From a virus (lineage: Duplodnaviria > Heunggongvirae > Uroviricota > Caudoviricetes), in IMG/VR virus record IMGVR_UViG_3300038492_000581, positions 25,815 to 89,814 of that record: a stretch of 64,000 bases of DNA. The stretch is one strand, 5' to 3'. The position numbers and the translations under genes were made by a program. Of this stretch, positions 2,004-42,426 are shown one piece after another. Positions within the stretch are counted from its first letter, which is position 1. Each line of letters opens with the position of its first letter. Below the pieces are notes generated by a model. That model did not search any database. It was not told where the DNA came from and saw nothing but the letters and a program-made list of their open reading frames with translations.

Positions 2004-2518
2004 TTCAATTGTCTCCAGGCGAACATACCCACATTGATACGATAAGAAAGTTTGCCACCAAAACCTCCCCACGGAATCTTTTTGCAGTTATCGCGAATGT
2101 ATTCCATGGTAGTTGGAGTTATGATTGCAAATTTCGGATGCGATGTTGACGAACCGATGACCATGAGAATACTCGCTTCTTGCTTAAGATAAGAATCTAC
2201 TTGTCCTACCTTAAGGTGAAAGAATTTGTCAAGCATAGGCTTCGAGAACTTGACTTCTATGAGGCCATACCCCTTGACCTCATAATCCGCATTGGAGTTT
2301 ACCTCATCTGCTTCGAGGTATTCCCCTCTGCCTTTGCCGCAACCAGAGAAAGATGCTTCTATCTTTTCCCCAGTAGTTCTTTCTAAGTAATCAAGCCAGA
2401 GTTTGAAAAGCTTTTGCTCCGTCTTGGAAGTTTCAGCTATATCTTTCTTGAACTCTTTTTTTGACCGCTTATCGAACCTATACGAGTTTCTCTTGTTAGT
2501 CAATGGCGAGCTGCCCAA
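2000..2518 (-). CDS. putative PD-(D/E)xK-type nuclease
   Basis: 172 aa. EADEV...DYEVKGYGLIEVK resembles a D..E.K nuclease core. Weak call. Confidence 0.35.
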   Translation of the reverse strand: MGSSPLTNKRNSYRFDKRSKKEFKKDIAETSKTEQKLFKLWLDYLERTTGEKIEASFSGCGKGRGEYLEADEVNSNADYEVKGYGLIEVKFSKPMLDKFFHLKVGQVDSYLKQEASILMVIGSSTSHPKFAIITPTTMEYIRDNCKKIPWGGFGGKLSYRINVGMFAWRQLK

Positions 2519-3089
2519 ACAATTCTCTGATTCGACACATTACCTTAAAGCAGGCAATGGTATCAAACAACGCACCGTGGTAATTTCCGGTTACATCGCT
2601 CATGTCAACCTTTAAAACCTTGATGGCACGCTCTAAACGCTTTCCGGTCCCAACGTTGGGAAGATCGGCGAACAGCTCCATCGGTGCAAGAGAGTCGATT
2701 TTGTGATATGTGAAGTTAGATTCGAATTGAATCTCGGGGTATGGTCCTTTGAAGTCAAACACATGTTTGCATAGAAATCTGACATCAAAGGCGACATTGT
2801 GGCCGCCGTAGAGTTGGCAACCGTGTTCGACATAACAGTCTGTGAATCGATCGGCGATTTCTGAAACAGGAATTCCTACATCCATACATTGTTCGGCGGA
2901 AATTCCGTGTACTCCGAAAGCTCCGTCGGTGATGACATAGTCATCTACGCTATCAAGCTTTACAAAATCTTCTGCCGCGTGAAGAACTTCTCCGTTGGCC
3001 AAATCTCCAACGACGTAACCCACAGAAAGAAGAGAGTGCATGGACGGATCGAGTCCACCAGTTTCGGTGTCGAATACTTGAATTTTCAT
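2496..3089 (-). CDS. DEDDh 3'-5' exonuclease (DnaQ/epsilon-like)
   Basis: Exo I VFDTETGGL, Exo II GHNVAFDVRFL and Exo III YHGALFDTIA. Confidence 0.75.
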   Translation of the reverse strand: MKIQVFDTETGGLDPSMHSLLSVGYVVGDLANGEVLHAAEDFVKLDSVDDYVITDGAFGVHGISAEQCMDVGIPVSEIADRFTDCYVEHGCQLYGGHNVAFDVRFLCKHVFDFKGPYPEIQFESNFTYHKIDSLAPMELFADLPNVGTGKRLERAIKVLKVDMSDVTGNYHGALFDTIACFKVMCRIRELFGQLAID

Positions 3090-3098
3090 TTCAGCCTC

Positions 3099-3494
3099 CT
3101 ACTGCTGGGCCTGTGGAGGCTGAACGTTGCTGATTTCATTCAGCATGTTCAAAAGGAGTGCAGCCCTGATCGCGAACGAGCCGGGAATCATTGTGTTTCG
3201 TCCAGTGATTACCGAGATAAGGAAACGGCAGTCATCACCTGTTAACTCAATGTTTTTCTTGGTTGGCTCTGGAGAAAGTACGGTATTTTTGGAACCGTTA
3301 TACTGAGTAATATATCGGTCGAGATCATTTTGCGTAGGAAATGTTTGGTTAATTTCTGGCTGGCTTTCGTCTCCCCGGAAGTTTACAAGGAGAATTTTTC
3401 CAGTAAGTTTTACAACCAAATAAGTATTGATACTTCCTTCTTGAGAAGGGAAGTCAATAAAATCACCGTGCTTAATCATAACTATGAACTCCAA
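3099..3494 (-). CDS. hypothetical protein
   Basis: 131 aa ORF in the minus-strand operon context. Confidence 0.4.
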   Translation of the reverse strand: MEFIVMIKHGDFIDFPSQEGSINTYLVVKLTGKILLVNFRGDESQPEINQTFPTQNDLDRYITQYNGSKNTVLSPEPTKKNIELTGDDCRFLISVITGRNTMIPGSFAIRAALLLNMLNEISNVQPPQAQQ

Positions 3495-3659
3495 AAGCCA
3501 AAAATCAAATTACCCCTGAGTATTTATACTGTACAGAGGCGTCAAAGTCAACGAAAAAACCGGGTCGGCAAAAAGTTGTAGAAGTATCCAGATTTTTCGC
3601 TTTAAGGAGATCCCAAGCTCAAAATCTGAAATTCATAAACACCCAGTCAAAAATATTAA

Positions 3660-4388
3660 TCAAGAAATGAAGCCACTGTTTTCTAAGAAAAGTTCGACCT
3701 TCTTCTCAAGATCTTGGATGGTTGAGTTGTTGTGAATGACATATCTGAAGGGATGTTCGTCAAGTGCGGTTTCGGATGGATGGCTATCGCTTTTCAGCGT
3801 CTCCATATCCCTCTCTACTCGAACAACTACACCTTCGCGTGATTCAATAGCCTCAACTTCGTTAGGAAAACGAGTATCGGTTACAAGAACAAGATCAATG
3901 CCTTCCCAATCTTGACGAAACGGAGCCTCAGCCCACACCTCAGAGTAAACTTGTTCGCGGAAAATATCGGTGCCCATTACTTGGAGCAGTTCTCGGTGAG
4001 TCATTAGCCCTGTTCGGGCTACAGATAAATCTTCCTTATCACCGGGTAGCCCAGGAATACCGGGTAATCTTTGTGTATTCGAATACTTAAGACGAATTTC
4101 CATAGGTAGACCATCCCATGGAATATGAGTGAGAGATTCTTTGTCTTGGTTGGCCCCATATACTTTGTTTGGGTCCAACCCAAACACATTGATGCACATA
4201 TCTTTTAGAGTCTCTGCAAAGGCATATTCAGCGACGGTATAACCGCGGGACTCCAATAATTCTGTAGCTATATTTGCCGAAAGATTCTTCCCACGTTGTT
4301 TTTTCCCTGAAAAGCCAATGAATCTTGTCATATTAATCCTTCCAATTTCTTGGTACTGGGATAAATTTGCCAGCCACTTTTTCGACAA
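3660..4388 (-). CDS. deoxynucleoside monophosphate kinase (T4 gp1-like)
   Basis: P-loop IGFSGKKQRGK. LQVMGTDIF and VTDTRFPNEVEAI resemble T4 Dnk LMQALGTDLI and VPDTRQDHE. Confidence 0.55.
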   Translation of the reverse strand: MSKKWLANLSQYQEIGRINMTRFIGFSGKKQRGKNLSANIATELLESRGYTVAEYAFAETLKDMCINVFGLDPNKVYGANQDKESLTHIPWDGLPMEIRLKYSNTQRLPGIPGLPGDKEDLSVARTGLMTHRELLQVMGTDIFREQVYSEVWAEAPFRQDWEGIDLVLVTDTRFPNEVEAIESREGVVVRVERDMETLKSDSHPSETALDEHPFRYVIHNNSTIQDLEKKVELFLENSGFIS

Positions 4389-4821
4389 CCCCTTTTTTCA
4401 ATAGGTTACGCAAAGTTCGCTTGGCAATTTTGCTGTTAGAAACATTCCATCCCCAACTATGATCATTCCATACGAACATATGATCTTCTTTTATATGTCG
4501 CAACCAAAGTATAGTGAGAATGCTTGCTTCTTCCTCTTCTCTCTGAGCGTTCTCATCATTCAATAGGACTGGTGCTCCACTACTTATGTCAGGCGAATCT
4601 CCTAAGCCAAACTCCGGGGTTTTCCGTCGAGTAGGGGAAGCTACTTGAAAGTGGCAAATGTCATGCAATACAGAGTGACCATCGTACCATGAACGATCCA
4701 TGTTTCGTGTATGTATGTATTTGCCATCCCAACTATATTTCTCTCGTTCTTCTTTTAGAGGTAAAGATAGTTGTTTGGCGATGCATCTTACCTTTCTTGC
4801 AAGAGATTTAGCATCCTGCAT
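4333..4821 (-). CDS. hypothetical protein
   Basis: 162 aa ORF. Confidence 0.4.
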   Translation of the reverse strand: MQDAKSLARKVRCIAKQLSLPLKEEREKYSWDGKYIHTRNMDRSWYDGHSVLHDICHFQVASPTRRKTPEFGLGDSPDISSGAPVLLNDENAQREEEEASILTILWLRHIKEDHMFVWNDHSWGWNVSNSKIAKRTLRNLLKKGVVEKVAGKFIPVPRNWKD

Positions 4822-5072
4822 TAAAATTTGTCCTTAGAATATTCAGATACTTTGCCTTCCCAAACAATAGACGATTGCCCGATGTTCCACACACGAACTT
4901 CCTGATCATGACGAGTTCCATATTTTAAGTAAGACTTATGATGACCAATGGCACCCTTCGCACTACTCAATCTATGAAATGTCTTGTAGAACTTCCACTC
5001 TCCATCGCTCTTTACAAGAAGGGCGTAAAAGTTGTCTGGAATCTCTTTGAGTTGATATCTGGCAAAAGACAT
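4821..5072 (-). CDS. hypothetical protein
   Basis: 83 aa ORF, start/stop coupled to its neighbours. Confidence 0.35.
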   Translation of the reverse strand: MSFARYQLKEIPDNFYALLVKSDGEWKFYKTFHRLSSAKGAIGHHKSYLKYGTRHDQEVRVWNIGQSSIVWEGKVSEYSKDKF

Positions 5073-5734
5073 TAAACTCCGCCTCCCAGCTCGTAAAAAC
5101 GATGCATGAATGCACGACGTATAGCATCAAAATCTGTTCCGTGAGCTTGGCAACCGGACGGACTGGTTAAGGCATCATCGACCGCGACAGTAACACGATC
5201 GTAATCTTGGGATACAGCATAATCCTTAACCCAGTCATGCTTTCGCACGAACAGTTCCTTTGCTTCGTGTATCAAGCAATCTGTATCGGCACGATGAACC
5301 AGTTCAGACATGGGCCATACAAGATTAAATTTTTCAAAGATGATTTCTTGCAATCGCTCTTCTGCCGCCTGGACGTTTTCAAACTCTCTTTTTATGGGGC
5401 TTGGTATGTCCGAAAGATAAGCCTCAGAGGCATCATGCATCAGTCCTTGAAGTTGCTCTTGTTCGGTGCCGCCCATGTGCTTGATGCGGTTTGAAACTTG
5501 GATGGAGTGGGCACCGACCGAATAAAAGGTGCGGATTTGTCCATTCCATCGGGCGATCATTGGTAATGCGTGAGCGATATCATTGATATCAATCATCTCG
5601 GGCGAAGCGTTAAAGATATTGACCATTTTGCCCGAGAAGGTTTGAATGGAGGGATTAGGAATCTTCTTGTCCATCTTCGGCAAGCTCCCTGATTGTTTCT
5701 TTCCACGTTTGTTCGACAATATCCTTACTGTCAA
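5072..5734 (-). CDS. HD-domain phosphohydrolase (YfbR-like 5'-deoxynucleotidase)
   Basis: HD motif H...LMHDASEAYLSDIPSPIK. Overlaps the next ORF, so the true start may be the internal MDKK at about 5674. Confidence 0.5.
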   Translation of the reverse strand: MTVRILSNKRGKKQSGSLPKMDKKIPNPSIQTFSGKMVNIFNASPEMIDINDIAHALPMIARWNGQIRTFYSVGAHSIQVSNRIKHMGGTEQEQLQGLMHDASEAYLSDIPSPIKREFENVQAAEERLQEIIFEKFNLVWPMSELVHRADTDCLIHEAKELFVRKHDWVKDYAVSQDYDRVTVAVDDALTSPSGCQAHGTDFDAIRRAFMHRFYELGGGV

Positions 5735-6719
5735 GAAGTCCGAACATCATGCCCCAGTACCCTGATGGAATGTTGGATTGAATCCATAACGCTACGTCTT
5801 TTCGGCTGTCAAAATTTCCTGGTATTGCGTCAAAATATTCGTACGCTCGGTAATTAACGATATCGTAGACTTGCTGAATGCGTGCTCTAATATCATCAAA
5901 ACCCTTTTGAAGCTCTTTGGGTAACGCCGAAATATGTACTCCATAATCCCCTTCACGCATCAGGGCCATAACGCCCTTGACGCTCATGTGCTCCAGGAGA
6001 CGGTGTGCTTTGACGTACCGAGGGTCTTTGGCTTTCACGCGTTTGCCGTTTTCAAAACGTATTACGTAGCCTTCACGTAAATCTTCCTCGAAGGGTATCT
6101 CTGTATCTCTGTCCAATTCAAATTGGAACTGCCGCGGACGACGAAATCCACATCGATTGGCGTAATCTGTTACTCTTTGGTGTGGCCACTCTTCGCCATC
6201 ATGCTCGAAGATGGCGAGCAAAGTTAGAAACTCTTCTTTGTCGTAATCTACAACGACTCGATTATCTGGATAGACAATCTCGAAAATTGGAGTAACTCTA
6301 TCTGGCAATAGTTCTGGGGCATACCTCATGCTATTAAGCATCTCGGTGCCCTTAATAGCTTGATCGCTTACAAAGCTGCCTGGCGTAGCAAGATGCCATT
6401 TACCATTCTTTTGATATCCATTACCGCAAGAACCATCCAGTTTTTCCCAAATAGTATAGCCCTTTGACCAGGGTAAATACTTAGGTTGGGTGCTGGGGCG
6501 TTCGCCGATATTGAAGAACTTGATAAATGGTCGAGCAACAACTTCTCCGCTATCTTTCATGATAAGCCCGCGAGCTTGCATGTTCCACTTGTTCCAAGCA
6601 TTCTTTTGTACGCAATTCTGGGTGTACTTAAACAAGTACATGTCATCAAGCTCAGACCGGTTTACATTGCCGGCGTCAACTTCTCGGTTTAGTTGTTTCC
6701 AAAGATTGTGATCTATCAC
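5655..6719 (-). CDS. RNA ligase, T4 Rnl1 (RnlA)-like
   Basis: ARGLIMKD, PFIKFFNIGERP and the KxDG motif IWEKLDGS align with T4 Rnl1 CRGIMF, PMEKFFNLNENP and KEDGSL. Confidence 0.7.
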   Translation of the reverse strand: MIDHNLWKQLNREVDAGNVNRSELDDMYLFKYTQNCVQKNAWNKWNMQARGLIMKDSGEVVARPFIKFFNIGERPSTQPKYLPWSKGYTIWEKLDGSCGNGYQKNGKWHLATPGSFVSDQAIKGTEMLNSMRYAPELLPDRVTPIFEIVYPDNRVVVDYDKEEFLTLLAIFEHDGEEWPHQRVTDYANRCGFRRPRQFQFELDRDTEIPFEEDLREGYVIRFENGKRVKAKDPRYVKAHRLLEHMSVKGVMALMREGDYGVHISALPKELQKGFDDIRARIQQVYDIVNYRAYEYFDAIPGNFDSRKDVALWIQSNIPSGYWGMMFGLLDSKDIVEQTWKETIRELAEDGQEDS

Positions 6720-7477
6720 GACTTGTTCCGCACCATTTTCAACATTGAATCGAAATCGTTGTATTCAAATTCTACGAGGCTTTGTCCATTCCATACCTCT
6801 TGCATGTTTGCTCGCAGTGTCGGATCATTAATGAAAAACCAACCCTGTCGATTTCGAGGGAGCAGTTCTTCCCAAGTATCTTTGCCATAATGATCTCTGT
6901 CTTCTTCGTTGGATACTTGGTAGTTAATCATATCCTTCATTTCGGAGACAGATTTTCCGTGCAGCTCTCTGTGCGAAAACATCGATCTCGCATACATTGA
7001 GACCGAGTTTCTGGTTGCGTCTCTCCAACGCCACAAAAAATAGTTTCCAACATCTTCCCAAGGCATGTTCCAGCAACGAGCATCAAACATGGCGGGATTT
7101 TCGATTGGGCGGAGAGAATCTTGGTTAAGCAGGCTCGAATTAAATGCTGCGGTTGCTACAGACGATGCAATACTGCAAATCTTCTGCACCTTGCCGCCGA
7201 ACCAAGGCTGACTTTGAGTACGTGCATCTGTTTGAAGGACAATGCTGAATTCATCCGACTGCACGTACCCAAAGATGGCACCCTGAGCTTCTTGCATTAA
7301 AGCTCTGGCAACATCATTCATGCCCCTATTAATCTTCGAATCAAAACAGTGCATGCCTTTTGTATAGTTGTGAAATGATCTGCCGTCCACCCGGATTAAG
7401 ATGGGCATACGAGGAACCAGCACAGACGAGTTGGCCGATTCATACGACTTCATTCTATCGCCGAGAGCGTCTTTCAT
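6716..7477 (-). CDS. Thg1-like protein (tRNA-His guanylyltransferase family)
   Basis: RVDGRSFHNYTK and FGYVQSDEFSIVL match the Thg1 signatures RLDGRxFxxF and YxQSDEhS. The track start at 7555 overlaps the upstream gene; the internal MKDALGDRMKSYE start at 7477 is preferred. Confidence 0.65.
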   Translation of the reverse strand: MKDALGDRMKSYESANSSVLVPRMPILIRVDGRSFHNYTKGMHCFDSKINRGMNDVARALMQEAQGAIFGYVQSDEFSIVLQTDARTQSQPWFGGKVQKICSIASSVATAAFNSSLLNQDSLRPIENPAMFDARCWNMPWEDVGNYFLWRWRDATRNSVSMYARSMFSHRELHGKSVSEMKDMINYQVSNEEDRDHYGKDTWEELLPRNRQGWFFINDPTLRANMQEVWNGQSLVEFEYNDFDSMLKMVRNKS

Positions 7478-8132
7478 TACTCTTCTTCTTTCCCATACCG
7501 GCATCATCGATATAACGGACAATAATCTGGTCGATTTTTTCTCCCTCGCCGCCAAGCTCGTTCATGGCGTGATGAATTTGTGCAAGTAAATTCCTCTGAG
7601 GATAGGGCTTATTGATGAACTCCGGTCCGCGACCCTGGGCATCTGCCTGTGAAATTAGGCCCACCGAAGCTTGATATTGACCAAGATTACGAATTAGCCT
7701 GACGCGTGTGATAGTCTTCAGTTCATTCAGTTTGTGTACTAAGAGATGGTACTTGGAAGCTCGCCAGGCTGTTTCTCGAAACGAATCTGGTGCATTAAAA
7801 GCATCGCATAACTTATGTACAAGAGGTACGCCCAAACTTTCGTGGTCGTAGTGATGCGGGAGATTATCGTCGGGAGTAACGGCTTTGCCGAGGTCATGAC
7901 ACATTGCCCCGAACACCTCTTGAGGGTCACCACCCAGTTCAACAGCACGGTCGACTACCAGGTACGTATGTACGAATGCATCGCCTTCTGGATGCCATTT
8001 GGGAGGCTGTAGCCGCCCTTTTAGATTGTATACCCAAGGGAGATGTTTCTCCATGTCTTCATCTGACATATTACGGAGAAAATCTCCCCCCTGAGTGGTC
8101 AATCCATCAATCAGTTTGTTAAATTCCATCAC
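7455..8132 (-). CDS. HD-domain protein resembling the C-terminal HD (phosphatase/2',3'-cyclic phosphodiesterase) domain of bacterial CCA-adding enzyme
   Basis: KWHPEGDAFVHT...MCHDLGKA resembles the CCA-enzyme HD-domain HPEIDTGIHT...HDIGK, as recalled from memory. Confidence 0.45.
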   Translation of the reverse strand: MMEFNKLIDGLTTQGGDFLRNMSDEDMEKHLPWVYNLKGRLQPPKWHPEGDAFVHTYLVVDRAVELGGDPQEVFGAMCHDLGKAVTPDDNLPHHYDHESLGVPLVHKLCDAFNAPDSFRETAWRASKYHLLVHKLNELKTITRVRLIRNLGQYQASVGLISQADAQGRGPEFINKPYPQRNLLAQIHHAMNELGGEGEKIDQIIVRYIDDAGMGKKKSNERRSRR

Positions 8133-12739: not shown

Positions 12740-13105
12740 CTATTTTTTCTCGATTTTTCCTTCTTCGTAGCCGCTGCACTGTTTTACTTCTGGCACGTCT
12801 ATTTGCTTTCTTAAGATTGGATGACAGCAAATGCCGTGAATGAATGTCTTGACGGTGTGGGCTTTTGATTCAACCTCTTTGGTGCCATCATCGTCATTTT
12901 CGCCGTGACCAAACAATTCGTTGTGGGCGGCAAGAGCGTGATCTACTTCAGCCGGGCTATTTTCGTCGAAGAATGTGCCGTCTTCAACCACGGGATGAGC
13001 TGTACGAACATCAAAGATGCTCTCAGTTGCCAACTTAAGCCCACAAATTCCATGCTTACAAGTAAAGCATAGCGAATTCTCTGCGTTTAGTTCGTTTTTA
13101 CTCAT
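12740..13105 (-). CDS. hypothetical Cys/His-rich protein
   Basis: 121 aa with several CxxC/HxxxC pairs. Confidence 0.35.
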   Translation of the reverse strand: MSKNELNAENSLCFTCKHGICGLKLATESIFDVRTAHPVVEDGTFFDENSPAEVDHALAAHNELFGHGENDDDGTKEVESKAHTVKTFIHGICCHPILRKQIDVPEVKQCSGYEEGKIEKK

Positions 13106-13680
13106 TTGTTTCTTTCAAATACCAGAGGATCATCCCATAGAACTTCGCCAGGAATATGCTGATAGGTGTCAATGAAACGCTGAATTACATCAAGCGGAAC
13201 ATTATGAACATTTCGTTTAACCAAAACCTTAGCATCCCACGGTCCTGGTGTCCGAATGATTTCAAACCGGTAATCAAACTGTCTCGCCAAATCAGCATAG
13301 ACTTGTACATCTCTTATTTTGATTGATGTATTAGAAACAATAATGCATTCGGTTCGTGCGATCATTTCTCGCTTTACTTCAAGTTGACACCACTTGTGAG
13401 CATCCCCCAGAAAATCTTTATTGAATGCGTAATTTGGGCCCCAAAAGTTATCGGCTTCAATTACAGGAGGACTTTCGATTTCGTCGTGCGATCTACTGAA
13501 CATGAACTGCTCAGAAAGATGGTTTGCGATTGTACTCTTGCCAGTTCCACAAGGGCCGCGTACAATATAAAGAATTGGCTTCTGTTTTTCACAGTATGAC
13601 AATGGTCTATATCCAAGATGTTTGAGAAGTTTGTCGTCCATGATCAAAAGTTTGGGCGGCCCCATTTTTGGGCCGCCCAA
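13102..13680 (-). CDS. polynucleotide 5'-kinase-like P-loop kinase (T4 Pnk kinase-domain-like, no fused phosphatase domain)
   Basis: P-loop IVRGPCGTGKST. IIVSNTSI and KRNVHNVPLDVIQRFIDTY parallel T4 Pnk IISDTNL and [20 protein letters not shown]. Confidence 0.55.
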   Translation of the reverse strand: MGGPKMGPPKLLIMDDKLLKHLGYRPLSYCEKQKPILYIVRGPCGTGKSTIANHLSEQFMFSRSHDEIESPPVIEADNFWGPNYAFNKDFLGDAHKWCQLEVKREMIARTECIIVSNTSIKIRDVQVYADLARQFDYRFEIIRTPGPWDAKVLVKRNVHNVPLDVIQRFIDTYQHIPGEVLWDDPLVFERNK

Positions 13681-14639: not shown

Positions 14640-14730
14640 TGAGTGGAGCCGGCGAGAATTGAACTCGCGTGCTGCTGTCCGTCGCCTCGATAGGATTTTA
14701 CACGCTTAGTTTCTTGCGAAACATTGGGGG
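14640..14730 (-). tRNA. possible tRNA-like element. Only the T-arm was recognised.
   Basis: Minus-strand GCGAGTTCAATTCTCGC T-arm followed by CGGCTCCA. I could not pair a 5' acceptor strand. Confidence 0.2.
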
Positions 14731-15012
14731 ACGTATTTGGTACGTCGCCTTCCACCACTCTGTTTTGTGAAAACAGAGAAAACGTTTTGCCGATGTATTA
14801 TAGTCGTCCCAATCTATCGGCATCAATTGGTTTGACTTGCTGCTACGCAGCCATCTTTGTAGTGCCAGTTAGGCTTGAGCATTCTGTTAAGGTCGGACGC
14901 ACAACAACCCTGCGTGACTATCTCAGTTCGTGAACCCAGTCGATACCTTTCGGCCCCGGGTACCATTAATAGTACACTTAATGGTGTCTAAAGTCAACTG
15001 ATTTTTGATGAT

Positions 15013-15914: not shown

Positions 15915-15989
15915 GGGGGAACGCCGGGATTTGAACCCGAACTTCCAGAGTCACAATCTGACGTGCTCACCGTTTACACCACGATCCCC
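15915..15989 (-). tRNA. tRNA-His (GTG)
   Basis: Anticodon loop TTGTGAC, T-arm TCGGGTTCAAATCCCGG and acceptor GGGGATC. The G run at the 5' end is compatible with an encoded G-1. Confidence 0.55.
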
Positions 15990-22586: not shown

Positions 22587-22669
22587 TAGGCGGCTTGGGA
22601 TTTGAACCCAACTGGACCAGACTACGGAATTATAATCCACTGCTTATAAGACAGTTCCGATACCCGCCC
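22587..22669 (-). tRNA. tRNA, long (83 nt) and atypical. Anticodon loop TTATAAT or CTTATAA; isotype unresolved.
   Basis: Acceptor GGGCGGG/GCCGCCT and T-arm TTGGGTTCAAATCCCAA are clean. The D and anticodon region contains two AT-rich palindromic hairpins that I cannot fit to a standard cloverleaf. Confidence 0.4.
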
Positions 22670-22684
22670 ATATGTTTTGGTACA

Positions 22685-22921
22685 TTAATCTTCTTCATCA
22701 TCTTTGGCTTCGACGGTAGCTTGGAAAGCTTCTTCCATAGCCCTTACAAGATCAAAGAAGGATTGTGTTTGATCCTTATCAAGATCTACGCACAGTCCGC
22801 TTTCCTTATGGAAAAAACTAACCGTGTAGTCCGATTGCCCGTCGTCTGACAGATCCATATAGAATGACGCGTCATCAAAGTTGCTCGTCAGGTCTACACG
22901 CATTGGTAGGCGTCTGCTCAT
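22685..22921 (-). CDS. hypothetical acidic protein
   Basis: 78 aa. Confidence 0.35.
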   Translation of the reverse strand: MSRRLPMRVDLTSNFDDASFYMDLSDDGQSDYTVSFFHKESGLCVDLDKDQTQSFFDLVRAMEEAFQATVEAKDDEED

Positions 22922-23385
22922 GAGTTGAGTATCCTGATAATTTGATCGGCTTCCGCAACAGTTAAACCTCCATTCTTTCCATTTGTTTTTACAAAGAAAG
23001 GAAGCTGTATTTCTTCATCGTCCACAATAGCACAACGAGTCATCGTAAGAAGAGGGTTAAGCTCTGTATCAACGATCCAAAGCATGATTTCAGACCTCCG
23101 ATCACGCAGGCTCATTTTAATGGGCGTAAACCATTTTGGCCGACTTATATCCATGGCATCAAAAGCTTGAAAGACTTTATTTCGATCGTAACGCCACGAA
23201 GAAGATACGCATACTTCGCAGCCAGTTTCTTCGATGATTCTTTTTAATTGTGCTACACAAGAGGGATCGAAGCCCGCGGCTGACTGGCACCACTCAACTT
23301 GTCCATCTTCATCTGAAGGGAGATTGTCTTTCCAATGTTGGACGTGATTGAGAACACCATCGATGTCAAGAAAGAGAACTTTCAT
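22918..23385 (-). CDS. HAD-superfamily phosphatase
   Basis: LFLDIDGVL, VSSSWR and AIVDDE. Confidence 0.55.
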   Translation of the reverse strand: MKVLFLDIDGVLNHVQHWKDNLPSDEDGQVEWCQSAAGFDPSCVAQLKRIIEETGCEVCVSSSWRYDRNKVFQAFDAMDISRPKWFTPIKMSLRDRRSEIMLWIVDTELNPLLTMTRCAIVDDEEIQLPFFVKTNGKNGGLTVAEADQIIRILNS

Positions 23386-23933
23386 GATTTAAGTTTTCCA
23401 TGTTTTACAAAATATGAATGATTTTCATCTTTCAGTCTTTTGATGTATCTCTTCTGAATGTCAATCAGTTTATGTGCGTTTTTCAAACGGTTGATCGTGC
23501 CTTGTTCCCAATATGTAGATGACGAAAGTGTGCGTGAAAGATCATGTGCGTCCTCTTCGCTAAATCCTATACGTCCATCGACTTTAATGAGACGGTCGGG
23601 CATAGTTTCATAATAATGCCATCGATCAATAGCTTCGTCATCAACAACAGCCCAATTGAATATGTTATTCTGACCTACATATCGTAGAACCGCACTACTT
23701 CTATCAAAACTTTCTGTGTACACAGAAATGCTGTCTACACCATGCTCCATCATGCGACGTTTCAGAAGATCTGAGTTAAAAGCAGAAAGAGTTACTACTT
23801 TTGAATCATGCTCTCTTATTACTTGAGCAAATCGATGTAGCAAAACATCGTCAAGATCTGGATTCGTGTGGCCTTCTGCGAAGGTGTATCGATTGAATAC
23901 GCCATCAACATCAATGAATACAACAGGTTTCAT
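23382..23933 (-). CDS. HAD-superfamily phosphatase
   Basis: VFIDVDGVF and AVVDDE. Confidence 0.55.
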   Translation of the reverse strand: MKPVVFIDVDGVFNRYTFAEGHTNPDLDDVLLHRFAQVIREHDSKVVTLSAFNSDLLKRRMMEHGVDSISVYTESFDRSSAVLRYVGQNNIFNWAVVDDEAIDRWHYYETMPDRLIKVDGRIGFSEEDAHDLSRTLSSSTYWEQGTINRLKNAHKLIDIQKRYIKRLKDENHSYFVKHGKLKS

Positions 23934-28291: not shown

Positions 28292-28369
28292 TGGGGACGG
28301 TGGGGCTCGAACCCACATTTACATCCTATTACCACTGTACGGTTTAGAAGACCGCCGGGATACGTCCCC
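28292..28369 (-). tRNA. atypical tRNA-like, anticodon loop CTTCTAA (Arg TCT). No recognisable D-arm.
   Basis: Perfect acceptor GGGGACG/CGTCCCC, T-arm GTGGGTTCGAGCCCCAC and anticodon arm GCGGT-CTTCTAA-ACCGT. Only 5 nt separate TA(8-9) from the anticodon stem. A 22-nt insert (ACAGTGGTAATAGGATGTAAAT) lies between the anticodon and T arms. Confidence 0.4.
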
Positions 28370-28712: not shown

Positions 28713-29885
28713 TTAAGGCAGATCCTTAGTATCCCTGAAAACAACTCCAACAGGAAACCTTGGAATTTGATCGTCTGTACGATCAAAGAATCTGATGGTG
28801 AGCGGTTTTCCAATATACTCATCTCTGTCGAGATAAAACTGCCTTCGCTCTTCCATTGTGGCCTTCATGCTGCATTCAAAGGTGCCGTCAGTTACGTCGT
28901 TGCGGCAAACCCAAACGACGCAACCCTCCATCTTTCCTCGGCCCCCTCGGGCAGCGACAACAGTGAATTCGGCGTCTTGAAATTTCTTGACTTTTAAAAG
29001 ATGTGCCGATCGATAGCCCCAAAGATATGTACCACTATTTCCACGAAGCATAGATCCTTCGTATCCATCAGTCATGTGTTGGCCGTATACATCCCACATG
29101 TCGGCTTCGCTGTTGACGTACTCTCCATACACCTTAGTGATATTATCACTTCGCTTGACTACCGCGATTAGATTTGCAAGCCTGTCCCTCCAAGGCAGAC
29201 TATCGTCCCCTCTGTGTGTGGGCACATCATAGACATGATATACAAGATTGAGGCTTTCAGGCTTATAGGATTTGCTTTCCGGATTAGCAGACTTTACCCA
29301 GGATGTAACGCGTTGACACGATTGACCATGAATGTATATTTCGCCATCAAGGATAGTTCCTTCGGGCAACCATTTAGCAAGTTGTTCTTGGATAACTGGA
29401 ACAAAGTATGGCTTGCCCTGTCGCGACGTCAGGCGGATTTCGCCGCCAACATTCTCGGCCAAACATCGTACGCCATCAAGTTTGGGCTGAAGATATCCGG
29501 GCCATTCGAACTTCTTGCCTTTGGTGGTAATCTTACCACTCGTGTTGGAATAAGAATGGGCCGTCATAGGAAGAGGTAACTGCTCTTGTGCCCCTTCTGG
29601 AGTCTCAGAGTACTTACGTTCTAATTTGAACTTATGAAGTGATTCGGCCTCTGAAGCGGCCTGTTCTTCGCCGGTGGTTTCGTTGGATCTTCCTACATTT
29701 TTGGGCACTGCGGTTTTTTGGGAAACTTGAAGTTTGCCACCAACAATACCGTATTCAGTGAAGATTTGATCTCCTTTACTCCAAACACGCCATTGACGCA
29801 ACTCGCCGGACTTACCTTTGTGATAAAGCGTTGGAAAATTCATGAGCGTTTCTTTTTGAGCCAAGACTTTATAAGACGATACCAA
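28713..29885 (-). CDS. ATP-dependent DNA ligase
   Basis: Motif I QPKLDGVR (KxDGxR) with the adenylation and OB domains. About 390 aa, similar in size to the T7 and Chlorella-virus ligases. Confidence 0.8.
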   Translation of the reverse strand: MVSSYKVLAQKETLMNFPTLYHKGKSGELRQWRVWSKGDQIFTEYGIVGGKLQVSQKTAVPKNVGRSNETTGEEQAASEAESLHKFKLERKYSETPEGAQEQLPLPMTAHSYSNTSGKITTKGKKFEWPGYLQPKLDGVRCLAENVGGEIRLTSRQGKPYFVPVIQEQLAKWLPEGTILDGEIYIHGQSCQRVTSWVKSANPESKSYKPESLNLVYHVYDVPTHRGDDSLPWRDRLANLIAVVKRSDNITKVYGEYVNSEADMWDVYGQHMTDGYEGSMLRGNSGTYLWGYRSAHLLKVKKFQDAEFTVVAARGGRGKMEGCVVWVCRNDVTDGTFECSMKATMEERRQFYLDRDEYIGKPLTIRFFDRTDDQIPRFPVGVVFRDTKDLP

Positions 29886-30109: not shown

Positions 30110-30206
30110 TTTGAAACTCCGACAAAAAAGATGCACGAAACCTGCCGGGCCCAATGGCCACCCGTTGTTTTAACCAGCACTATGTCTTGGGCAGGTTTCA
30201 TGCGAG

Positions 30207-30279
30207 TGGGGGCACCAAGGATTCGAACCTGGATCTGTGCAGTTACAGTGCAGCGTGTTACCGTTAACACTATACCCCC
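30207..30279 (-). tRNA. tRNA with anticodon GTA (Tyr), type I architecture
   Basis: Acceptor GGGGGTA/TGCCCCC, D-arm GTGT-TAACGGTA-ACAC, anticodon loop CTGTAAC and T-arm CCAGGTTCGAATCCTTGG. Confidence 0.5.
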
Positions 30280-30691: not shown

Positions 30692-30777
30692 ATGAAAGAC
30701 TGGGATTCGAACCCAGACTACGGGTTCCACATAGCTGAAACAACATTCCCGCGTGCTTCCAATTACACTACCTTTCA
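30692..30777 (-). tRNA. tRNA-like gene with a 23-nt insertion where the anticodon loop should be
   Basis: Acceptor TGAAAGG/TCTTTCA, D-arm GTGT-AATTGGAA-GCAC and T-arm CTGGGTTCGAATCCCAG are all good. The stem GCGGG/CCCGT closes a 23-nt loop containing an internal hairpin GTTTC...GGAAC. Confidence 0.4.
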
Positions 30778-32434: not shown

Positions 32435-32512
32435 TAGCGGCGGTTGGATTTGAACCAACATGTAACCGGGTTACGCTTTCTACGTCTTATCAGGACGAGG
32501 CGATACACCGCC
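32435..32512 (-). tRNA. atypical tRNA-like, anticodon loop CTGATAA (Ile GAT). No recognisable D-arm.
   Basis: Acceptor GGCGGTG/CGCCGCT, TA(8-9), then after 5 nt the anticodon arm TCGTC-CTGATAA-GACGT, a 23-nt insert with the hairpin GTAAC-CCG-GTTAC, and T-arm GTTGGTTCAAATCCAAC. The architecture matches 28292..28369. Confidence 0.4.
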
Positions 32513-32877: not shown

Positions 32878-33903
32878 TTATTTTTCTCTTTCAAGATATT
32901 CAGGACTTCTTTGCTTGAGTATCAACCTGCCACCAAGTTTTTCTGACCTCTGCTCCCGCATGGGGCGGATCACGATGCCTTCGCGACGTGTATCAAGCAA
33001 CGCAGAGGTGCCGTTTGATGCTTCTTGTATAGTTCTACCACACAGCCAGTCAGCAAGCAAAACATTTTGTCCTAAAATTGGTACCATTGCAATGCCCATC
33101 GAGGTGCACAAATTAACGAACGAATCAACGTCGATCCAATTATAACCCACTTTGATATCGAATACTCTAACATCAAGCTCCGATAGCCTGTAGATGTTCT
33201 TTTGGAATCCAGGACCAATAAACTCTCCGTAAAGTGTCACAGTCTCGCCATAAGATTGTGAGATCCTTTTTGCTTTATGAAGCAGACCTGTTCTCTTGGC
33301 GACCGCCCAGTACGAATGATCTTCCTCACCATCAGGCACGATGGTAAATCTACGTTGACTGACAAAGGCTTCGTCTGTTTCAGGATTGTATGTTACGGAA
33401 AAGTTAGATCCTTCAAGCTTCTCAGTAATAAGCACTCTTTGATTCATCAGTTCTTGTGCGACTTCAGCGTAACGATCAGCACCCTCTATGTCATACATGC
33501 TCAGCCCTTCGGGTAACGCATGAAGACGACCGTTTTTGCAAGGCACCTCGGGCGGCTCGTATTTGGTTACGCCAAAGAACTCTGTCAAGTCGCCTTTGCA
33601 AGCTGCGGCCAACGATGCGGGCCCAACAATACCCTGAGAGATTTCGCCACGCAAACGCACGGTCTTTACTCTATCTTTCTTCTTACCCGAGAGTTTTCCC
33701 GTAAGACCCAGTTGTTCTTGAACACGCTCAGGTAGAATAGAATCGATTGGGAAGTAAACTACCTTGTCGCCGGGAACGTATGATTCACGACCAACAACAA
33801 ACTGAAACGTTGATCCAGCAAGCGTTGCAATATCAAGCCGGTCAGCTTGAGGGTGACGTTTTACTGTATTTATTGTTTCAATGGTTACGCCGAAAAAGCT
33901 CAT
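32878..33903 (-). CDS. RNA ligase-like nucleotidyltransferase with an N-terminal tRNA-binding (Myf/EMAP-like OB) domain
   Basis: N terminus VKRHPQADRLDIATLAGSTFQFVVGRESYVPGDKVVYFP fits the tRNA-binding domain pattern HP.AD.L..........V.G......G..V. The central KxDG-type motif ITEKLEGSNFSV fits ATP-dependent ligase motif I. Confidence 0.5.
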   Translation of the reverse strand: MSFFGVTIETINTVKRHPQADRLDIATLAGSTFQFVVGRESYVPGDKVVYFPIDSILPERVQEQLGLTGKLSGKKKDRVKTVRLRGEISQGIVGPASLAAACKGDLTEFFGVTKYEPPEVPCKNGRLHALPEGLSMYDIEGADRYAEVAQELMNQRVLITEKLEGSNFSVTYNPETDEAFVSQRRFTIVPDGEEDHSYWAVAKRTGLLHKAKRISQSYGETVTLYGEFIGPGFQKNIYRLSELDVRVFDIKVGYNWIDVDSFVNLCTSMGIAMVPILGQNVLLADWLCGRTIQEASNGTSALLDTRREGIVIRPMREQRSEKLGGRLILKQRSPEYLEREK

Positions 33904-38336: not shown

Positions 38337-38410
38337 CTCCAGAGATGCGATTCGAACGCATAACATTCACGTTAACAGCGTGTTCCCAGTACCAACCCGG
38401 GCCCTCTGGA
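38337..38410 (-). tRNA. tRNA-Asn (GTT)
   Basis: TCCAGAGGGCCCGGGTTGGTACTGGGAACACGCTGTTAACGTGAATGTTATGCGTTCGAATCGCATCTCTGGAG. Confidence 0.55.
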
Positions 38411-39060: not shown

Positions 39061-39091
39061 TTCACTCTCTTGATTCTACGATGTAAAAAAG

Positions 39092-39165
39092 TACCGGGAA
39101 GTGGAGTCGAACCACTAATCACCACATTCTTAATGTGGTCGCGTTGCCAATTAGCATACCCCGGC
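39092..39165 (-). tRNA. tRNA-Leu-like, type I, with a non-canonical 9-nt anticodon loop or 7-bp stem (anticodon TAA or AAG)
   Basis: Acceptor GCCGGGG/TCCCGGT, anticodon region ACCACATTAAGAATGTGGT and T-arm AGTGGTTCGACTCCACT. The T stem starts one nucleotide later than standard, which is consistent with an enlarged anticodon loop. Confidence 0.45.
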
Positions 39166-40249: not shown

Positions 40250-40311
40250 ATGAGTATTATACCCTGTGGCCGCCTTGCGGCCACAGAAAATTTTTATGCG
40301 GCGTGCCGCAG

Positions 40312-40385
40312 TGCCCCTGATAGGAGTCGAACCTATAGACACGACCTTCTGAGGATCGCCGCATTGCCAGTTAGCGTACAGAGGC
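40312..40385 (-). tRNA. tRNA with anticodon CAG (Leu), type I (short variable arm)
   Basis: Acceptor GCCTCTG/CAGGGGC, anticodon arm CGATC-CTCAGAA-GGTCG and T-arm ATAGGTTCGACTCCTAT. Confidence 0.5.
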
Positions 40386-41919: not shown

Positions 41920-42103
41920 TGCCGGAGGCAGGATTCGAACCTGCAAGCCGCCAGTCAAACCCCTTTTGTCTTATGGGAAGTGGCCACTTCCCATAAGACT
42001 TCATGATTCTATTCTGTTGCTGCATTTCATGATTGCAGCACGGCACCCGCTTTACGAACGGGCGTGTTTACCAATTTCACCACTCCGAGCTTAATATCGT
42101 ATA
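41920..42103 (-). tRNA. tRNA-like fragments: a 3' T-arm/acceptor element (41920..41950) and a tRNA-Tyr-like 5' half (42040..42103), separated by two strong hairpins including a perfect 26-bp palindrome
   Basis: 3' part GCAGGTTCGAATCCTGC-CTCCGGC-A. 5' part GCTCGGAG-TG-GTG-AAATTGGTAAA-CAC-G-CCCGT-TCGTAAA-GCGGG (anticodon GTA, C33). Between them lie TTATGGGAAGTGGCCACTTCCCATAA and GCTGCAATCATGAAATGCAGC. The acceptor strands pair only 5 of 7. Confidence 0.25.
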
Positions 42104-42138
42104 TTCAATTGCCAAAGATCAGCGGCTTAGCCGCTGAG

Positions 42139-42210: not shown

Positions 42211-42220
42211 TTTAAAAGGT

Positions 42221-42305
42221 AGCCCTGGCAGGACTCGAACCTGCAATCAGTCGCAAGCGACTGGAGTGACAATTTCGGCTCAAGGTAACCAACTTGGACT
42301 TTCTT
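42221..42305 (-). tRNA. tRNA-like element. Canonical D-loop and T-arm, acceptor and anticodon unresolved.
   Basis: Classic D-loop AGTTGGTTA and T-arm GCAGGTTCGAGTCCTGC followed by CAGGGCT-A. No complementary 5' strand found. The internal 7-bp hairpin AGTCGC-TT-GCGACT replaces a normal anticodon arm. Confidence 0.3.
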
Positions 42306-42426
42306 CGCCACTCACACCTTTATGTCAGTTTTGGTAAGATTATGAGTCTCTCAAAACAATCTCTTTAGAATGGTTAGTTCTACTGAGAAAAAGGCCGCCC
42401 TATCCATCAGGCGTTCAGGACCATAG

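Follow-up and report, generated by a model that had tools for sequence, protein, structure and literature searches.

A tRNA-Asn-derived phage gene with 14 extra nucleotides, probably placed in the anticodon loop

Archaeal tRNA introns of 11-129 nt have been reported, and in their canonical bulge-helix-bulge (BHB) register nt 32-35 form a helix with intron nucleotides n-5 to n-2, with the splice sites lying in the flanking 3-nt bulges (PMC4090602). Protein-spliced introns are absent from the tRNA genes of Lactobacillus plantarum (PMC4090602). In host nuclease cleavage and phage repair of the anticodon loop, as described for phage T4 (host nuclease PrrC; phage enzymes Pnkp and Rnl1), a single nick in a normal tRNA-Lys is resealed. 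We know of no report of a protein-spliced tRNA intron from bacteria or from phages that infect them. Self-splicing group I introns have a structured core and span hundreds of nucleotides. Host nucleases that cut anticodon loops or arms, and the phage tRNA changes that counter them, have been documented (PMC10264068, PMC11555353, PMC13056530).

Phages related to the one studied here usually carry two Asn tRNAs, a short class-I tRNA and an 86-87-nt tRNA with a long extra arm. We aligned eight long-arm copies by hand for a covariation test (Table 1; loci fetched for this study are denoted by L numbers). The results showed that all 192 of 192 pair cells held standard pairs, and compensatory changes were present in 17 of the 24 pairs. 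Each of the eight copies has a CUGUUAN loop on five Watson-Crick pairs and an extra arm made of 4 bp, a tetraloop and a 3-4-nt tail. The class-II-shaped tRNA-Asn is a real and conserved feature of this phage clade. The clade also holds long-arm Lys, Thr and Cys tRNAs, short Leu and Tyr tRNAs, and tRNA-like genes without a D arm.

In this study, we examined a tRNA-type gene in a 64,000-nt stretch of phage DNA (the window). A sequence-only reading had described it as a tRNA-like gene with canonical acceptor, D and T arms, whose anticodon loop is replaced by a 23-nt structured insertion. ARAGORN called a gene at exactly these positions, 30692-30777, on the minus strand and labelled it tRNA-Asn(GUU), 86 nt, and the Rfam model RF00005 recognized it with 44.1 bits (gathering score 29; E 4e-6 for the whole window). 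The minus-strand read is UGAAAGGUAGUGUAAUUGGAAGCACGCGGGAAUGUUGUUUCAGCUAUGUGGAACCCGUAGUCUGGGUUCGAAUCCCAGUCUUUCAU. The three body arms proved to be as described, with 7 pairs in the acceptor stem, 4 in the D stem and 5 in the T arm, all perfectly paired, and the nucleotides of the conserved tertiary contacts can be read from the sequence (U8, A14, G18G19, A21, U54U55C56 and A58). The U1-A72 pair is also present in all 15 Asn tRNAs, from related phages and the window, that we aligned. The discriminator is U, and CCA is not encoded at the 3' end.

The gene belongs to a cluster of at least 28 tRNA-type genes on the minus strand, spanning 15.9-45.3 kb. Pfam or PHROGs scans, which covered about 50 ORFs of the window, showed two RNA ligases, one of Rnl1 type (5655-6719) and a second one (32878-33903), together with a Thg1-like enzyme, an RlaP-family protein, two HAD_SAK_2 proteins, a metallophosphoesterase, an AAA_33 kinase-like ATPase and an RNase T-like exonuclease. 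We also looked for T arms beyond the genes already called, and this yielded four additional candidates, one of which is a canonical class-I tRNA-Asn(GUU) at 38337-38410. Both ARAGORN and the whole-window Rfam run had overlooked this gene, which scored 41.9 bits with Rfam in a local search and 77.6 bits with a covariance model of class-I Asn tRNAs (R2, see below). Its presence makes the 86-nt gene a redundant second copy.

Bases 1-37 and 52-86 of the 86-nt gene align with normal class-I tRNA-Asn(GUU) genes found in related phages, and this alignment places 14 extra bases at loop position 37/38. Besides the U1-A72 pair, the D arm (GTGTAATTGG..), the T arm and the body as a whole are shared with these tRNAs, UGUU is in register at 33-36, and the variable loop has 4 nt as theirs does. 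Its D arm (GTGTAATTGGAAGCAC) and its variable loop UAGU are nearer to those of the short Asn tRNAs (GTGTAATTGGTAACAC; UAUU) than to those of the long-arm tRNAs. The class-I tRNAs have a YUGUUAN loop on five pairs and G73, whereas the gene has the 14 extra nucleotides after position 37, A32, G37, an A31.A39 mismatch and U73. We compared positions 32 and 37 with a reference set of 345 distinct ARAGORN calls, taken from the window and 136 fetched loci. A32 proved to be rare (3 of 345 calls), and G37 was present in 38 of the 345.

Table 1. Positions of the parts of the 86-nt gene in the window and of the tRNA and tRNA-like genes compared with it
Feature	Position	Strand	Remarks
Whole 86-nt tRNA-Asn-derived gene	30692..30777	(-)	ARAGORN; Rfam tRNA 44.1 bits
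Acceptor stem 5' strand UGAAAGG	30771..30777	(-)	Partner UCUUUCA at 30693-30699; U1-A72
D arm GUGU-AAUUGGAA-GCAC, class-I type	30753..30768	(-)	Close to the relatives' short Asn tRNAs, e.g. GTGTAATTGGTAACAC in L096 7291
Anticodon stem 5' strand CGGG (nt 27-30)	30748..30751	(-)	Partner CCCG at 30721-30724 in Rfam alignment, R2 and minimum-energy fold
A31 and kept 5' loop part A32 U33 G34 U35 U36 G37	30741..30747	(-)	Anticodon GUU 30742-30744; collinear with YUGUUA of the relatives' Asn tRNAs
14 extra nt UUUCAGCUAUGUGG (sequence positions 38-51)	30727..30740	(-)	Insertion according to Rfam and R2
A38, A39 and anticodon stem 3' strand CCCG	30721..30726	(-)	Pair 31-39 is an A.A mismatch
4-nt variable loop UAGU	30717..30720	(-)	Compare UAUU, AAUU in class-I Asn tRNAs of L003, L096, L001
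T arm CUGGG-UUCGAAU-CCCAG	30700..30716	(-)	Rfam alignment
Canonical class-I tRNA-Asn(GUU) of the window	38337..38410	(-)	Loop CUGUUAA, U1-A72, G73; T-arm scan
Class-I tRNA-Asn(GUU) copies of related T4-like metagenomic phages	L001 8701, L003 7509, L096 7291		
Long-arm tRNA-Asn(GUU) copies of related phages	L001 8782, L003 7590, L005 6048, L094 14755, L096 7369, L098 4042, L099 8787, L105 8923		
tRNA-like genes with class-I body and 25-nt anticodon loop	L001 5134-5222, L096 3550-3638		

We built two covariance models, R1 from the long-arm Asn family and R2 from seven class-I Asn tRNAs, and scored the gene with both. The results showed 36.3 bits for R1 and 38.7 bits for R2, a difference of 2.4 bits. 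R1 gave 80-88 bits to the long-arm Asn members, 44-67 bits to long-arm Lys, Cys and Thr tRNAs and 37.6-44 bits to class-I Asn tRNAs (4 of 7), and its score for the gene was no higher than for unrelated tRNAs. R2 gave 70-78 bits to the class-I Asn members and 28-51 bits to the long-arm Asn tRNAs of R1. In the R2 alignment, CGGG is paired with CCCG, and a segment of the anticodon loop that measures 2 nt in the model measures 16 nt in the gene. As a control, R2 was applied to the long-arm Asn tRNAs L094 14755 and L001 8782, and their extra 12-13 nt were placed in the variable region. The R1 alignment of the gene left 6 non-paired positions in the arm.

Two folds of the anticodon region compete. 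In one, CGGG (30748-30751) and CCCG (30721-30724), extended by a G26.U wobble, enclose 23 nt, and this pairing was chosen by Rfam, by the minimum-energy fold and by R2. The stem GCGGG/CCCGT drawn in the sequence-only reading was thereby recovered, and the minimum-energy fold reproduced that drawing together with the hairpin UUUCA/UGGAA. The description of the loop as replaced by a 23-nt insertion is probably right in locating extra nucleotides in the loop, but it needs correction, as the 5' part of the loop with GUU is kept in register and 14 nt are added on its 3' side. In the other fold, that of ARAGORN, a 7-nt loop AUGUUGU stands on the stem CGGGA/UUCAG, in which there are a G.A mismatch, a G.U pair and an A-U pair; the variable region after it has 18 nt and contains a stem of 5 pairs. 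CGGGA/UUCAG with its G.A mismatch is the only possible 5-bp anticodon stem with a 7-nt loop.

We compared the stabilities of the two folds. The energies were -22.9 kcal/mol for the insertion fold and -15.8 kcal/mol for the ARAGORN fold, a gap of 7.1; the three body arms alone gave -13.8 kcal/mol, and comparison of this value with the ARAGORN fold indicated that ARAGORN's anticodon stem is destabilising. The anticodon arm of ARAGORN had an energy of +3.2 kcal/mol, the third least stable among the 345 distinct calls (mean -3.5, sd 2.1), and the two calls with worse arms were mis-folded. Whole-molecule energy was dropped as a means of discriminating between the folds, since real tRNAs often have minimum-energy folds other than the cloverleaf; the gap between the minimum-energy fold and the cloverleaf ranks 43rd of 345 for this gene and is not unusual among real tRNAs.

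We also randomised the 14 nt that distinguish the two folds and re-ran ARAGORN on 1000 shuffled inserts. An intron-less 86-nt tRNA was returned in 75% of the cases, and tRNA-Asn(GUU) in 23%, indicating that the canonical ARAGORN call is weak evidence. The sequence-only reading had named ARAGORN with intron detection as a check on the enlarged loop. The fold with a 7-nt loop was unchanged when the intron search was on, an outcome that this reading had named as a refutation, but a test that most shuffled inserts would answer in the same way has little power. CCCG positioned to leave a variable loop of 3-5 nt, a coincidence that the long-arm fold would require, arose in 0.4% of shuffles of the 18-nt stretch. 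The canonical-fold energy of the real insert was better than that of 89% of shuffles (p = 0.11). Of the two competing folds, the one with the extra nucleotides within the anticodon loop has the better support, and CGGG/CCCG closing a loop of 21-23 nt is predicted to be the strongest pairing, chosen by the structure-aware models. We consider it likely that 14 nt were inserted in the anticodon loop of a class-I tRNA-Asn paralogue.

Homologues of the gene were sought in several collections. Searches of GenBank phages in near and distant modes gave generic tRNA matches only, and four tRNA-derived patterns run against IMG/VR gave nothing or unrelated long-arm Met and Gln tRNAs. No close relative of the phage was found in GenBank phages or IMG/VR, and the 99-aa ORF adjoining the gene had no homologue but itself. 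Two other public contigs were retrieved that are 100% identical to the window, the gene included; the three public copies, being identical, carry no information on conservation. The DNA ligase at 28713-29885 has homologues, 55-65% identical, on 160-180-kb metagenomic contigs that carry T4 rIIB-like genes and large tRNA arrays. Loci anchored on this ligase in a protein database, a metagenome collection and IMG/VR (at most 65-70% protein identity) contained no orthologue with the insertion, and two GTDB genome scans gave no homologue of the gene. As these searches returned no homologue with sequence variation, there is no covariation for either fold.

Taken together, we put at about an even chance that the gene is a second, paralogous version of the class-I tRNA-Asn(GUU) of this phage, that its 14 additional nucleotides separate loop position 37 from the 3' strand of the anticodon stem, and that its product is a non-decoding RNA, either a relic or a mimic. 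We counted in favour of this explanation the R2 placement, the Rfam pairing, the energy gap, the weak anticodon arm of ARAGORN, the ease with which its canonical call arises for random inserts, the 0.4% frequency of the CCCG coincidence, the low R1 score, the redundancy of the gene and a precedent in the clade (see below). Perfect body stems were counted against it, since they argue against long neutral decay. Also counted against it was the length, since 86 nt is the size of the long-arm Asn tRNA usual in related phages and the 18 nt that follow the anticodon stem of ARAGORN have their match in L094 14755, as were the gap of only 2.4 bits between R2 and R1, the p value of 0.11 for the canonical fold, the energy rank of 43rd in 345 and the lack of a variant homologue.

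It is possible, though doubtful, that the gene instead encodes a working tRNA-Asn(GUU) with a long variable arm, the counterpart of the 86-nt class-II-shaped Asn tRNA of related phages. Its weak anticodon stem (C-G, G.A, G-C, G.U, A-U) might then be held by the L-shaped body, base modifications and the ribosome, which we likewise regard as doubtful. ARAGORN calls such a tRNA with and without intron search. The best argument for its reading is that a class-II-shaped tRNA-Asn is conserved in the clade and agrees in length with the gene, the copies in L001, L003, L005, L096, L098 and L105 having 86 nt. The gene resembles the long-arm tRNAs (86-87 nt) in U1-A72, in GUU and in being the second Asn gene of its genome, a two-paralogue pattern that recurs in the relatives. 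The long-arm copy of L094 belongs to the TGG-type acceptor lineage, and TGAAAGG and the class-I D arm of the gene are closer to this lineage than to the TCATGG/TCCAGG type. The register of U33, of GUU and of the purine at 37 is kept, 5 pairs are possible in the extra arm, the canonical-fold energy lies within the best 11% of shuffles, and other calls of the window, such as the Thr tRNA at 42138, tolerate a mismatch at pair 28-42.

The structural features of loop, stem and arm common to the long-arm family are missing from the gene. All eight members combine CUGUUAN on five pairs with an arm of 4 bp and a tetraloop, 100% paired; the gene has none of these, its loop AUGUUGU standing on 4 standard pairs (one of them a G.U wobble) and a G.A mismatch, and its would-be arm having 4-5 bp, a 7-nt loop and a 1-2-nt tail. 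The anticodon arm ranking third worst of 345, the A32 found in 3 of 345 calls, an R1 score at the level of unrelated tRNAs, the CCCG coincidence and the low specificity of ARAGORN at this locus likewise speak against a working long-arm tRNA.

If the RNA is non-decoding, a disabled relic and a retained mimic have roughly equal odds. All observations can be reconciled with the mimic suggested by the sequence-only reading, but they agree just as well with a simple disabled copy. As a mimic, the RNA could present an L-shaped body with GUU exposed in a large loop, and titrate or mislead a host factor that recognises tRNA-Asn. This factor could be an anticodon-arm nuclease or a modification enzyme, or the RNA could serve a non-ribosomal use of Asn-tRNA. 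We hold this version, whose share is contained in the even chance given to a non-decoding RNA, to be unlikely on its own, although several observations agree with it. The body stems and tertiary nucleotides have stayed intact, and the changes fall in the loop, at positions 32 and 37 that are otherwise conserved, which hints at retention; a recent insertion would look alike, as it would leave the body intact without selection. The window is rich in RNA repair genes. Both host nucleases of the anticodon loop or arm and countering changes in phage tRNAs are documented (PMC10264068, PMC11555353, PMC13056530); they offer a plausible setting for a mimic, and a link of the gene to such nucleases may be suggested by analogy. 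On the other side, we identified neither a variant homologue nor a target, and the three identical public copies are uninformative.

The clade maintains another enlarged-loop tRNA-like RNA, which also bears on a mimic. Two related phages carry a tRNA-like gene with a class-I body and a 25-nt anticodon loop (L001 5134 and L096 3550; Table 1). The stem closing this loop is CGGGC/GCCCG in one gene and UGAGC/GCUCA in the other, and these compensatory changes indicate that enlarged-loop tRNA-like RNAs are maintained in the clade. Both genes lack CCA although their neighbours encode it. They resemble the 86-nt gene in the class-I body, the G-C-rich stem around a 21-25-nt loop, the anticodon-loop heptamer beside one stem strand and the absence of CCA. 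They differ from it by an 18-nt insert on the 5' side, a strong palindromic hairpin and a Gln-like heptamer; moreover, they are kept in two phages, whereas the 86-nt gene has no known homologue, and the loops have no sequence similarity. Their loop sequence ACCCAGACUGGCCAGUCU had one 3-mismatch match in the window, inside an ORF. Among the fetched loci, it was present on the L001 and L096 contigs only, and a further search gave chance palindromes.

A third explanation takes up the archaeal-type BHB mini-intron raised in the sequence-only reading, in that the 14 nt would form a protein-spliced mini-intron at 37/38. A relaxed bulge-helix-loop would be cut twice by an endonuclease of the host or the phage, and the halves would be rejoined by the phage RNA repair enzymes, giving the loop AUGUUGA. 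We consider this very improbable. The site is exactly that of archaeal and eukaryal introns, and 14 nt lie inside the archaeal range of 11-129 nt (PMC4090602). A central 4-bp helix (A32-U49, U33.G48, G34.U47, U35-A46) and a 3' three-nt bulge (G50 G51 A52) can be drawn in the canonical register, and the intron would be UUUCAGCUAUGUGG. Only about half of the BHB motif can be drawn in this way. The helix has two Watson-Crick pairs, both A-U, and two G.U pairs, and it stems from a direct repeat AUGU...AUGU; such pairing arose in 5.2% of shuffled inserts, which is chance level. The inner helix h' cannot form (UUCAGCU), the 5' site lies in a 10-nt loop, and the outer helix starts with the A.A mismatch at 31-39. 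As a control, we ran the same BHB test on a distant contig, where the tRNA-Lys UUU at L063 4733-4823, which has a genuine 18-nt intron, passed in all parts. The spliced RNA would in addition keep the unusual A32 and G37.

The enzymes required for such an intron were also considered. Two RNA ligases are encoded in the window, as are the RlaP-family protein, both HAD_SAK_2 proteins, the metallophosphoesterase and the AAA_33 kinase-like ATPase, whereas no splicing endonuclease (EndA-type, tRNA_int_endo) or RtcB was found among the approximately 50 window ORFs scanned. As judged from these matches, the joining half of a splicing pathway appears to be encoded in the window, and the cutting half was not found among those ORFs. 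With its Rnl1-family ligase, its other RNA repair proteins and an anomaly in the anticodon loop, the locus recalls the T4 system; in T4, however, a nick in an otherwise normal tRNA is repaired, whereas cleavage and rejoining of the present RNA would be hypothetical. A tmRNA detected by Rfam at 14641-14957 and a relative binned with a Hydrogenophaga MAG point to a bacterial host, a setting from which we know of no such intron. Should the 14 nt be removed, we would know of no earlier protein-spliced tRNA intron from a bacterial system. Protein-dependent splicing of tRNA would then occur beyond archaea and eukaryotes, and the RNA repair genes of phages would be connected with the maturation of tRNA.

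Several other origins or roles of the insert were rejected. The hairpin GTTTC...GGAAC of the sequence-only reading exists, as UUUCA/UGGAA, but it is no more stable than in shuffled inserts (p = 0.54), which ruled it out as a selected structure. A group I intron is ruled out by the length of just 14 nt and by Rfam scans in which no intron family matched, and a repeated mobile element by the single copy in the window, with no further copy in IMG/VR. An anticodon in the distal hairpin loop (GCUAUG, containing CUA) would lack U33 and lie in a 6-nt loop on an arm of about 10 bp, which would misfit the decoding geometry. Deletion of one AUGU repeat copy with the spacer would give a His-like loop, AUGUGGA, but the body is Asn-like (U1-A72, without G-1), and a tRNA-His already encoded at 15915-15988 counts against this reading as well.

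For the preferred non-decoding RNA, the following course may be proposed. The gene would be transcribed with the neighbouring minus-strand tRNA genes, its ends would be trimmed and CCA would be added, an addition that nearly all tRNAs of the window need, since only one of them encodes CCA. The RNA would fold into a normal L-shaped body with the anticodon in an oversized loop, and AAY codons would for this reason not be read efficiently by it. Decoding of AAY would presumably be done by the canonical tRNA-Asn at 38337-38410. A mimic of this kind could, for example, serve as a bait that draws host nucleases of the anticodon arm.

Provided that the RNA is produced and retained, the phage would have a look-alike of a tRNA with its anticodon withdrawn from decoding, and this would bear on how phage tRNAs and host anticodon-arm nucleases shape one another. 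If the gene is only a broken copy, it calls for caution in annotation, as ARAGORN labels it a plain tRNA-Asn while the canonical tRNA-Asn was overlooked. More may be gained from the surrounding clade, with its array of tRNA forms and its many RNA repair genes, than from this gene alone.

The results showed that tRNA classes are swapped in the phage clade of the window, which includes the related loci L001, L003 and L096, among others. The Leu and Tyr tRNAs of the window were of class-I length, and the Asn, Lys, Thr and Cys tRNAs of relatives were class-II-shaped, with an extra arm of 4 bp and a tetraloop. For the tRNA-Asn of relatives, this shape was strongly supported by covariation. Met(CAU) and Gln tRNAs of 86-89 nt were also found in unrelated IMG/VR phages; these combined a class-I D arm (TAGTGTAATTGGYAACA) and regular anticodon arms with variable regions of 17-22 nt.

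The second tRNA-Asn of the window carried the unusual bases G8 and G14, and was detected neither by ARAGORN nor by the Rfam run over the whole window. In three further tRNA-like genes, only 4-6 nt stood in place of the D arm, and all three had a long extra arm. The anticodon arms of these genes were regular, with the loops CUUCUAA (UCU), CUGAUAA (GAU) and CUUAUAA (UAU). Only the first in the table reached the Rfam threshold, and the other two were detected by scanning the window for T arms. Rfam assigned about 100 nt of the 170-nt tRNA-like gene to the variable region, and these contain a long perfect hairpin (GUCUUAUGGGAAGUGG/CCACUUCCCAUAAGAC); the anticodon loop of this gene, UCGUAAA, reads GUA, yet has C33. 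At another locus, a good T arm (GCAGG-UUCGAGU-CCUGC) was followed by CAGGGCU, for which no matching 5' acceptor strand was found within 140 nt; this locus is possibly a fragment of a tRNA, or a 3' half.

tRNA-like features and RNA repair genes in the window and in other loci
Feature	Sequence	Positions	Strand	Basis
Leu (AAG, CAG) and Tyr tRNAs	window	39091-39165, 40311-40385, 30206-30279	(-)	
Canonical class-I tRNA-Asn(GUU)	window	38337-38410	(-)	Rfam, 41.9 bits, local search of region
Genes lacking a proper D arm	window	28292-28369, 32435-32512, 22587-22669	(-)	
170-nt tRNA-like gene	window	41920-42089	(-)	Rfam alignment
T-arm locus	window	42220-42345	(-)	
RNA repair and tRNA maintenance genes	window	2496-8132, 13102-13680, 22918-23933, 32878-33903, 47153-48528		
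Long Met(CAU) and Gln tRNAs	L008; L009; L010; L012	1133-1218; 724-812; 8755-8840; 995-1081		
Conserved tRNA-like gene, 25-nt anticodon loop	L001; L096 (L097, L101 the same)	5134-5222; 3550-3638		
Intron-bearing tRNA-Lys(UUU)	L063	4733-4823		
tmRNA-like piece	L001	5311-5393		tmRNA model, 68.5 bits
Amber (CUA) tRNAs	L003; L094; L096	3149-3222; 5188-5263; 3850-3925		

An enlarged anticodon loop was conserved in relatives, where a Gln-like heptamer, UUUUGAA or UAUUGAC, had an 18-nt palindromic hairpin (AGACUGGCCAGUCU) inserted on its 5' side. Compensatory changes between L001 and L096 were seen in the stem that closes this loop, and these genes encoded no CCA; adjacent tRNAs did. As a positive control, we used the tRNA-Lys(UUU) of L063, a distant metagenomic contig; the 18-nt intron of this tRNA, at 37/38, is a textbook example of the bulge-helix-bulge type. 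The ligase on this contig was 33% identical, and the contig is probably of archaeal or archaeal-virus origin.

Genes for RNA repair and for tRNA maintenance also formed a dense set in the window. The set comprised an RNase T-like exonuclease, an Rnl1-type RNA ligase, a second RNA ligase (PHA02142 type), a Thg1-like guanylyltransferase, an HD protein, an AAA_33 kinase-like protein, two HAD_SAK_2 proteins, a metallophosphoesterase and an RlaP-family protein.

Between the tRNA-Ala and tRNA-Glu of L001, 83 nt spanned positions 1-374 of the tmRNA model, and the piece looks like a tRNA-like domain without the coding part. No tRNA with a CUA anticodon was among the ARAGORN calls for the window. Relatives combine an amber tRNA with a release-factor-like gene (RF-1 domain; present in L001, L003 and L094), a pairing for which stop-codon reassignment in phages could be a candidate setting.
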